Source of the DNA: Antedon mediterranea
Lineage: Eukaryota; Animalia; Echinodermata
Length of the DNA stretch: 64,000 nt
NCBI RefSeq assembly: GCF_964355755.1
Contig: NC_092677.1
Location: 208,101-272,100, forward strand
Direction of reading: 5' to 3'
Shown: positions 31,901-34,900 of the stretch, piece after piece
Position numbering within the stretch: position 1 is the first letter of the stretch
Layout of the letters: every line of letters begins with the position of its first letter
The notes under the pieces: model-generated
Seen by the model: only the letters and a program-made list of their open reading frames with translations
Told to the model about the DNA's origin: nothing
Databases searched by the model: none
Position numbers and translations under genes: made by a program

Positions 31901-34900
31901 TTTGTGCCTAAATGAACAACTGTTGACATTAACATGTAATGTAGTTTTAATGTTAATTAAAGTTTAAAACAAAAACAATTTGAAAAATAAATGAAGCAAA
32001 TATAACAAAGCCAACAAAACTGTTTGAAAAAAGCTAATAAAACTGTTTGAAAAAAAAAGCTAACAAAACTGTTTGAAAAAAGCTAACAAAACTGTTTGAA
32101 AACGAAGCAAACAAAATTTATTCAATTAATACTAGTGCCAATGTTAAACTTGTTCAATTAATACAAGTGCCAATGTTGAACTTGTTCAATTAATACAAGT
32201 GCCAATGTTGAACTTGTTCAATTAATACAAGTGCCAATGTTGAACTTGTTCAATTAATACAAGTGCCAATGTTGAACTTGTTCAATTAATACAAGTGCCA
32301 ATGTTGAACTTGTTCAATTAATACAAGTGCCAATGTTGAACTTGTTCAATTAATACAAGTGCCAATGTTGAACTTGTTCAATTAATACTAGTACCAATGT
32401 TGAACTTGTTCAATTAATACTAGTACCAATGTTGAACTTGTTCAATTAATACAAGTGCCAATGTTGAACTTGTTCAATTAATACTAGTACCAATGTTGAA
32501 CTTGTTCAATTAATACTAGTGCCAATGTTGAACTTGTTCAATTAATACTAGTGCCAATGTTGAACTTGTTCAATTAATACTAGTGCCAATGTTGAACTTG
32601 TTCAATTAATACTAGTGCCAATGTTGAACTTGTTCAATTAATACTAGTACCAATGTTGAACTTGTTCAATTAATACTAGTGCCAATGTTGAACTTGTTCA
32701 ATTAATACTAGTGCCAATGTTGAACTTGTTCAATTAATACTAGTGCCAATGTTGAACAGCTTGGGTTTAAATTGCTTCTTGTTTTGAGATTCCAATTTAT
32801 AGTATTTGTTTTGAGATTCCAATTAATTTGTTTTTTTGTAACCGGTTTCACTTACATTATCCTTAGTAGCTTCCTCAAACCCTGCCTTTGAACACTCAAT
32901 ACCAAAAGCAAAGAAACACAAAATAGATCCAATCCAAAGCAAGGTGGCGAAACCACCAAACAACTGTTTGCAAAACTTAATCCATTCAGGTGTTTTTGGA
33001 GGTGGTGTTAGTGAGTTGGGCCCATCACGTTCTAAAACTTCCTTAGCTCTCTGTTTTGTTAATCCCTGAATGTCAACAACATTATAAACAAAGTTAGTAA
33101 TAACAACATTGAACTGCAAATAGCAGTAGTTAAAGTTTGTACTTACATTATCTTTCTGAGTTTCTTCAAATCCAGTTTTACTACATGCAATGCCAAAGGC
33201 AAAGAAACACAGGATGGAACCAAGCCAAAGGAGAGTGGAAAAACCACCAAAAAGTTGTCGACAAAATTTCAGCCATTCTGGCGTCTTCGGTGGTGGAGTT
33301 AAACGATTTTTACCATAACGTAGCAAATTGCTGGCGACTCCTTCTGGTGTTAATCCCTATTATGCATGTTTTATCACCAAATATGGATATGTACTACTCA
33401 TAGATTATATATTCATGATATCAACATCAACATCTCTCAAACTCTCACACAATCATCAACATTTTCAGCAATAAATATATCATGTTATGGTTAAAAGTAT
33501 CAACATCAAAATCTCTCAAACTCTCACACAATCATCAACATTTTCAGCAATAAATATATCATATTATGGTTAAAAGTATCAACATTAAAATCTCTTAAAC
33601 TCTCACACAATCATCAACATCTTCAGCAAAAAACATATCAATACAGAGTCATGTAATCTTGTTTAAAGTACACACTTTATACTTTAAATAACTGAATCAG
33701 GAATATACATTTCACAATATTGACTTACTTCAGTAGGACTTGTGGTCAAACGCTTGTAAAGATCGTCAATTGCAATTTTATGCTCATCCTACAAGAATAA
33801 TTAACAGAACCATTACAGAATTCATTAAAATATCAAATGAATGAGGATTATTTTTGTAATGGACTAAAGTACTTTGCTTATTTATGTAATGTTTATGATG
33901 AATAGAAATAAAGAAGAAATAAAATATGATAAGAAAAATTAATCAAGATGTGAAGAAAATGTAAAAGAATTAATGTTTCAACTGCATAAATTAAATACAT
34001 TATATTCTAAGAAGGCAATTGATCTTAACGATTTCTTAACCTTGGATATGAATCATTTATGCATAACACTAACAGGATATATTGACCTTCATCCAATCAC
34101 GTTGCACGAACCGTTCACATCCTTTTAAGGACATGGCAATTATCTATGCAGGAACTGGCTGACAGAATGAATACATTAAAAGAGAGACACATCTTGTGTA
34201 CAGTATAAACGTTTACTAGAAGGGGTATTCACTAGAAATATATAATGTATATTATTATTTTGTAAAAGCATTAAATAGAAGGTTTTAATATTTAAAAAAT
34301 AAAAAATAAAACAACAAACATACAAGTTCCAACTCCTTTTTTAGATCAGCCATATCTGCCTTCTTCTTGCCTTTCTTCCCCTTCTTGGCAGAAGGCTCCA
34401 CTGTCACTTTCATGTCCCCCTAACAAAATAAAATTGTATTCATATTAACATTGTGCCATTAAGTTAATAAAATTGCTTTAACTTAATGTGCAGTCCTGAT
34501 TAATTATGTGTTATAACTCAGATATCTTGAATGCGTAGAAGAAGCTGTACAAAAAAATTAATAAATTAACATCTTATTTGATATTGATAAAGTATTCCAT
34601 ATTATTAACATTGTGCCATTCACTGAATAAAATTCAACTTTGTGTGTACAGTACTAACTATTTAGTGAATATCTAAGATATCTTGAATGCGTAGAAGAAA
34701 CTCTATAAAAAATGAATAACTTAACATCTTATTTGATAATATATTCCTACAAGATTACTTACATTAGCCTCATAATTCAGCAGTACGGGCGTGTTATCCG
34801 CCATTATCTTAATTTATATGTTACTCTCGCACTACCAAAACTAAATCTACCAGTATTTCTAATGGTATCCTATCTTTATGGGATAATATAAATGTTAGTA

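Follow-up and report, generated by a model that had tools for sequence, protein, structure and literature searches.

The window analysed here (the whole 64,000-nucleotide stretch of Antedon mediterranea DNA) carries on its minus strand a gene whose product is Na+/K+-ATPase alpha, a P2C ATPase. The whole coding span of this gene lies at 25950..37463, its product contains the Cation_ATPase_N, E1-E2, cation ATPase, hydrolase and C-terminal domains, and the best solved matches were Na+/K+-ATPase alpha. Within the gene, two adjoining homologous exons of 210 nt, each with phase 0/0, are flanked by an upstream constitutive exon of 60 nt and phase 0 (33729..33788) and by a downstream constitutive exon in which M2 starts (31341..31454), all on the minus strand. 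Copy A, the derived form, occupies 33147..33356 and encodes 70 residues; copy B occupies 32856..33065; and between them lies an intron of 81 nt (33066..33146) with a branch-point-like CTAAC. Each copy has an AG acceptor, a GTAAGT donor and a frame without stops. The exon lengths, phases, splice sites, open frames and flanking exons given in a preliminary description of this locus were all reproduced. Both copies code for the segment corresponding to pig alpha1 residues 55-122, which runs from the pre-M1 cytoplasmic helix through the A-M1 linker and M1 to the H1-H2 loop. No second duplicated full exon was found elsewhere in the coding span of the gene. A, the intron and B (33356-32856, minus strand) happen to form one open frame of 501 nt with no stop, probably by chance.

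Several other features of the window were observed in passing. The pump gene has alternative first coding exons on the minus strand, at 37463-37437 in RefSeq isoform X3 and at 34804-34763 in X1 and X2. At 29485-29796 lies a 62-nt tandem array in which the final 48 coding bases of exon 29953-29755, together with its GT donor, are repeated another four times; this gives the intron decoy 5' splice sites. A dispersed repeat, short and of very high copy number, occupies 31243-31313 in a pump intron (summed contig depth above 200,000 in the DNA runs), with related pieces at 4812-4867, 56025-56073 and 59166-59214. Beyond the pump gene, inspection by eye suggests a Toll-like receptor with leucine-rich repeats for a 954-codon open frame at 8593-5732 (minus strand) and a salt-inducible kinase (SIK) gene for the exons at 61096-50327 (minus strand). 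SIK1 regulates the sodium pump in mammals; the presence of a SIK-like gene near a sodium pump gene is probably chance.

To establish the physical and annotated status of the pair, contigs from four of the five listed sequencing runs were compared over positions 30700-34200, together with RefSeq proteins. A and B lay on a single contig of 733-734 nt in 3/3 DNA runs (all from one sample); the duplication is therefore real, and an assembly artefact is ruled out. Exon A is a 100% match to a RefSeq protein of Antedon mediterranea. Joined with A, the 16 window exons give isoform X2 (XP_071959681.1) exactly, and joined with B they give isoform X1 exactly; isoform X3 combines B with a different first exon. 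A-type and B-type isoforms are on record for two crinoids, Antedon (XP_071959679/681/682; family Antedonidae) and Anneissia japonica (XP_033096761/762; family Comatulidae). The Anneissia isoforms are of equal length and differ only within this exon, one being A-like and the other B-like; these models take the distal-type first coding exon. The A and B forms are thus already on record as RefSeq isoforms, without description. All five crinoid RefSeq proteins contain either A or B and never both, and not one of the 445 proteins compared has two copies of the segment within 200 residues. Automatic RefSeq variants normally require transcript support. The RefSeq isoforms are automatic models, those of Antedon were built from the same assembly as the window, and the tandem layout in Anneissia is deduced from protein models. 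The crinoid comparison covers two species. No further crinoid pumps appeared among the matches listed (24, and the best 120 of 891, 120 of 187 and 150 of 958).

One sequencing run, X1, is probably derived from RNA. It contains a spliced contig of depth 828 with the joints 33729>33065, 32856>31454 and 31341>31022, in which B is used and A is skipped. Exon A is present in this run only on an unspliced contig of 380 nt (33046-33425, depth 30) that reaches into both flanking introns. Four junctions had been proposed earlier as a check on alternative use of the copies: the two that involve B were seen, and 33729>33356 and 33147>31454, which lead into and out of A, were not seen in this one probable RNA run, whose contigs lose rare forms. 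The same holds for a joint between A and B, none of which occurred among these contigs. Coverage by run X1 is low in the intron around A, whereas it is absent from five bins elsewhere, all of them in introns with coverage from the DNA runs. This pattern might reflect slow splicing around A; contig depth and holes prove nothing in themselves. The case for A as a used exon comes instead from selection on A, described below, and from the RefSeq A isoforms. The exclusive use expected in the preliminary description fits the A-skipping RNA contig and the five A-or-B models; A and B probably form a mutually exclusive exon pair.

We then considered how exclusion might be achieved. Both exon lengths are multiples of 3, so the reading frame is unable to enforce exclusion, and a mechanism based on frame and nonsense-mediated decay is impossible. 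The acceptor of A has pyrimidines at 6/15 positions between -20 and -6, the lowest of 14 acceptors scored; that of B is second lowest (7/15), and the other 12 have 9-12. A would be skipped by default owing to its weak acceptor. The 81-nt intron is the shortest among the 16 introns scored in the gene, the next being 118 nt, and the branch-like A of its CTAAC sits 53 nt from the 5' splice site, a distance that is borderline for a steric block. Joining of A to B may be hindered by this short intron. A competing RNA pairing was also considered, in which a 14-nt inverted repeat at the donor of A (33131-33144) pairs with 33666-33679. It was rejected: its energy of -15.3 kcal/mol was equalled by 9.8% of 500 shuffles and by 12/169 genomic tiles, and its pair probability in a local fold was 0. 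The opposite arrangement, in which A and B are included together or the 81-nt intron is retained to give a non-functional product that down-regulates the pump, would draw on the stop-free frame shared by A, intron and B and on the unspliced X1 contig, which runs from A through the intron into the beginning of B. However, that contig also includes 69 nt of the intron that precedes A, and is therefore either precursor RNA or DNA. Selection for a conserved A sequence would not follow from a doubled M1, and the protein models described above never contain two copies. We regard joint inclusion or retention as very improbable.

Comparison of the two copies gave a signature of purifying selection. 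A and B differ at 70/210 nucleotides and at 19/70 residues (51/70 identical). By the Nei-Gojobori method, 35/47 synonymous sites and 35/163 non-synonymous sites differ (Fisher p = 4e-11), giving a pS of 0.75, near saturation, a pN of 0.21 and a dN of 0.25; in the core, residues 19-56, dN falls to 0.085. When B was mutated at random at 70 bases, 0/20,000 mutants stayed within 19 residue changes (the mean was 42 and the minimum 32). The suggestion that both copies are under purifying selection was therefore borne out by the synonymous excess and by the failure of any random mutant to come as close. Between Antedon and Anneissia, A is identical at 55/70 residues and B at 64/70, as compared with 837/895 for the gene downstream of the exon. 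Glu81, invariant in 210/210 non-crinoid segments, is changed in Anneissia A. The sole variant seen within A (33315, in 3/4 runs) is synonymous. A appears to have changed fast at first and to have been kept later under lower constraint than B.

The history of the pair was examined with a tree of 14 exon peptides, from which one Amphiura row was absent. Support for a clade of the two A copies is 96/96, and the stem of this clade measures 0.52 changes per site; a group of all four crinoid copies has 88/88, not starred. The B tips measure 0.03-0.04, and the longest tip, 0.31, is that of Antedon A. Pairing of A with B within each species is disfavoured and not firmly rejected, with p-AU of 0.07 for the whole exon and 0.049-0.050 for residues 1-26. 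An insertion of two residues in the loop is common to all four crinoid copies and absent from the other proteins among the 445 compared. The simplest reading is one exon duplication in a crinoid ancestor, after the loop insertion arose and before the two families split, and A seems to have gone through a burst of change after the duplication. Close to the 3' end, the copies within a species agree with each other at two sites (pig 99 and a residue of the loop), which may reflect gene conversion or parallel change. An origin of A from a Ca2+-ATPase-like segment found no support, as the first 30 residues of A match only Na+/K+-ATPases at E < 0.1. The exon pair is real and old, and B is best read as the ancestral-type main form. 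The accessible portions of PMC13079724, PMC11861897 and PMC11959729 gave no divergence date for Antedonidae and Comatulidae.

Among the isoforms of Asterias rubens, of two Lytechinus species and of Strongylocentrotus (2 genes), none differed in this exon alone, and the same was true of three Branchiostoma species, Clavelina and Dreissena. Patiria, Asterias amurensis, Diadema and Amphiura are represented by single models. Among metagenome loci, 0/56 had two exon copies, many of these loci being transcripts or short.

These data bear on the possibility that A has lost an earlier function and drifts, with little or no splicing at present; the A isoforms in RefSeq would then have arisen from few reads or from protein homology. 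Such decay would account for the lack of spliced A in the one probable RNA run, for the weakest acceptor in the gene, for the faster evolution of A than of B with the long Antedon A tip, and for the loss of an otherwise invariant Glu81 in Anneissia. It is hard to reconcile with the retention of the frame, the exact length and both splice dinucleotides in a copy whose synonymous sites are nearly saturated relative to B, with the 55/70 residues kept between two families, and with the synonymous nature of the only variant seen. We therefore judge a drifting A to be unlikely, and favor the view that A is a used exon.

The differences between A and B are not spread evenly along the exon. Seven residues mark A in both species and are absent from both B copies (pig 58, 59, 61, 62, 64, 68 and 72), and all seven fall within the first 18 residues (exon residues 4-18; codons 1-18 of A at 33303..33356, minus strand), in the cytoplasmic actuator-domain helix. 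Over residues 1-18, identity is 13/18 between the A copies, 16/18 between the B copies and 6-7/18 between A and B, and over residues 19-56, Anneissia A and B are identical at 37/38. Several of the changed positions are strongly conserved. Of 277 non-crinoid segments, 248 have Ala at position 61, 228 have Asp at 68 and 235 have Pro at 70; the A copies have Val at 61, Tyr at 68 and Lys or Ser at 70. Individual non-crinoid segments carry at most 4/7 of the A marks. Tyr or Phe occurs at 68 in 21/277 of them, so this residue is tolerated in pumps and is not a sign of decay; a narrower earlier set had Tyr68 in 1/210 segments, the count varying with the search. The changed helix has 1 acidic residue in A and 3 in B. 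A structure prediction, poor for the whole model (pTM 0.37), places the changed segment in a helix at residues 70-80 with a pLDDT of about 80, ending at a Tyr/Asp68-Gly69 turn (Tyr-Gly in A) that leads into the A-M1 linker.

Part of the N terminus belongs to the actuator domain (PMC11193536), and the head is coupled to the release of Na+ through strain in the A-M1 linker (PMC13526833). Alpha1/alpha3 chimeras in which the N-terminal segment was swapped had unchanged Na+ affinity, and no single segment accounts for the difference between alpha1 and alpha3 (PMC13526833). Experiments on the A-mark residues themselves were not found in the literature. A location in the cytoplasmic helix is also compatible with a functional A, spliced alone, that provides a new helix surface for trafficking or for a cytoplasmic partner only (for example in neurons, sperm or juxtaligamental cells) with unchanged kinetics. 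The changed residues are indeed cytoplasmic and include changes of surface charge, and the alpha N terminus is a docking region with an LKK motif for the IP3 receptor (PMC11172918). However, Val61, Asn64 and Tyr68 stand at strongly conserved positions (Ala in 248 and Asp in 228 of the 277 segments), which suggests a change in packing and not a free surface, and this proposal is without a known partner. A role restricted to trafficking or partner binding is, in our estimate, unlikely.

The preliminary description had interpreted the pair as a swap of the cardiotonic-steroid-binding segment. Alignment to pig alpha1 confirmed that the segment holds the H1-H2 loop with the ouabain sites 111-122, of which 111 and 122 are key ones for cardiotonic steroids (PMC11193536). 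A splice switch for sensitivity to cardiotonic steroids or saponins, giving one resistant and one sensitive pump, would be consistent with the position of these sites inside the exon (PMC11193536) and with the Antedon loops (codons of the A loop at 33147..33188, minus strand), 4/14 residues of which differ between A and B. At site 111, Antedon A has Ala and Antedon B has Glu, both with D121 and N122; Ala111 occurs in 0/210 non-crinoid segments, and Q111E by itself confers about 2-fold resistance in Drosophila (PMC10028858). However, both Anneissia copies have Glu111, which is the echinoderm state (11/11 non-crinoid echinoderm sequences among those listed), and C104, F108, D121 and N122 are identical in all four copies. 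Thus, across sites 104, 108, 111, 121 and 122, A equals B in Anneissia and only 111 differs in Antedon, along with less defined loop residues. A toxin switch would be expected to place conserved differences in the loop, and 0/7 of the conserved A marks are extracellular. Among the papers listed, exposure of crinoids to cardiotonic steroids did not appear. Since the conserved differences are cytoplasmic and the ouabain sites are the same, a conserved toxin switch is unlikely; we give the switch between a resistant and a sensitive pump quite low credence, and the toxin story is probably wrong. Ala111 may nevertheless have a small side effect on steroid binding in Antedon.

As a separate observation, the H1-H2 loop (33188-33147 and 32897-32856, minus strand) of both crinoids exceeds that of pig and of other echinoderms by 2 residues, and in each exon copy a Cys follows site 111. 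Such a longer loop could influence how every crinoid pump binds steroids.

The explanation that we favor, and hold to be moderately probable on the sequence comparisons, is that A and B are spliced one at a time and that A is a minor form that would alter gating or partner binding and not toxin binding. B would be the spliced ancestral-type form of the feather star pump, and A a likely minor form limited to certain tissues or stages. The A helix loses charge, with one acidic residue in place of three, Asp68 replaced by Tyr and Pro70 lost, and altered packing of the head domain would shift the E1/E2 balance or turnover, or the binding of a cytoplasmic partner. The earlier proposal had been that splicing makes two pumps differing in toxin sensitivity or kinetics; its toxin half does not hold, and its kinetic half fits the data better. 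A bolder version, which we advance only tentatively, is that a crinoid splice switch rebuilds the actuator helix and the entry to the A-M1 linker, yielding a second pump with different gating in a special cell type (nerve or control of mutable connective tissue), with Ala111 possibly modifying steroid binding in Antedon. If this bolder version is true, the pair would be an experiment of nature on a region of the pump that hardly varies among animals. Vertebrates tune the sodium pump through four alpha genes. The crinoid A and B pumps are identical save at 16-19 residues, and a single cytoplasmic helix contains the 7 conserved changes, which makes the role of that helix directly testable. The exon pair is not evidence for a toxin arms race.

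Alternative exons are known in the same gene family from insects, in the exon 6 series of Drosophila ATPalpha. These Drosophila exons are mutually exclusive and lie in a later membrane region, whereas the crinoid pair lies at pig residues 55-122 and represents a separate, independent event. PMC6733596, on insect ATPalpha, names exon 6b and describes 'two alternatively spliced exons' as masked. A further set of variants was observed in the tunicate Clavelina lepadiformis, where three RefSeq isoforms of equal length (X1-X3) differ only in the linker between actuator domain and M3, residues 268-311; judged by their sequences, these likely represent three mutually exclusive exons that arose independently in the tunicate sodium pump. 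In fireflies of the genus Photuris, ATPalpha/ATP1A paralogs likewise provide conserved and fast-changing versions of M1-M2 within one animal (PMC10028858). Those, however, are whole-gene duplicates with changes at 111, 112, 119, 122 and 797 (PMC10028858), whereas in crinoids the duplication involves a single exon, with conserved changes on the cytoplasmic side.

The crinoid pair itself, or alternative M1 exons in a sodium pump, were not found in the open literature, a body of work outside which subscription papers mostly lie. The closest general class is that of tandem duplicated exon pairs, which are over-represented among ion transporters and in most cases specific to tissues (PMC9741552); the main text of that paper has 0 mentions of ATP1A, and its supplementary tables might list pump orthologues. 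The crinoid exons resemble this class in being adjoining homologous exons of equal length and phase, with a conserved core and conservative changes, in a membrane transport gene, and differ from it in affecting a P-type Na+/K+ pump and in having their divergence packed into the first 18/70 residues. On our best reading, they represent a known kind of splicing at a new place in the sodium pump, specific to crinoids, and would add another case of convergent exon duplication in the sodium pump gene.
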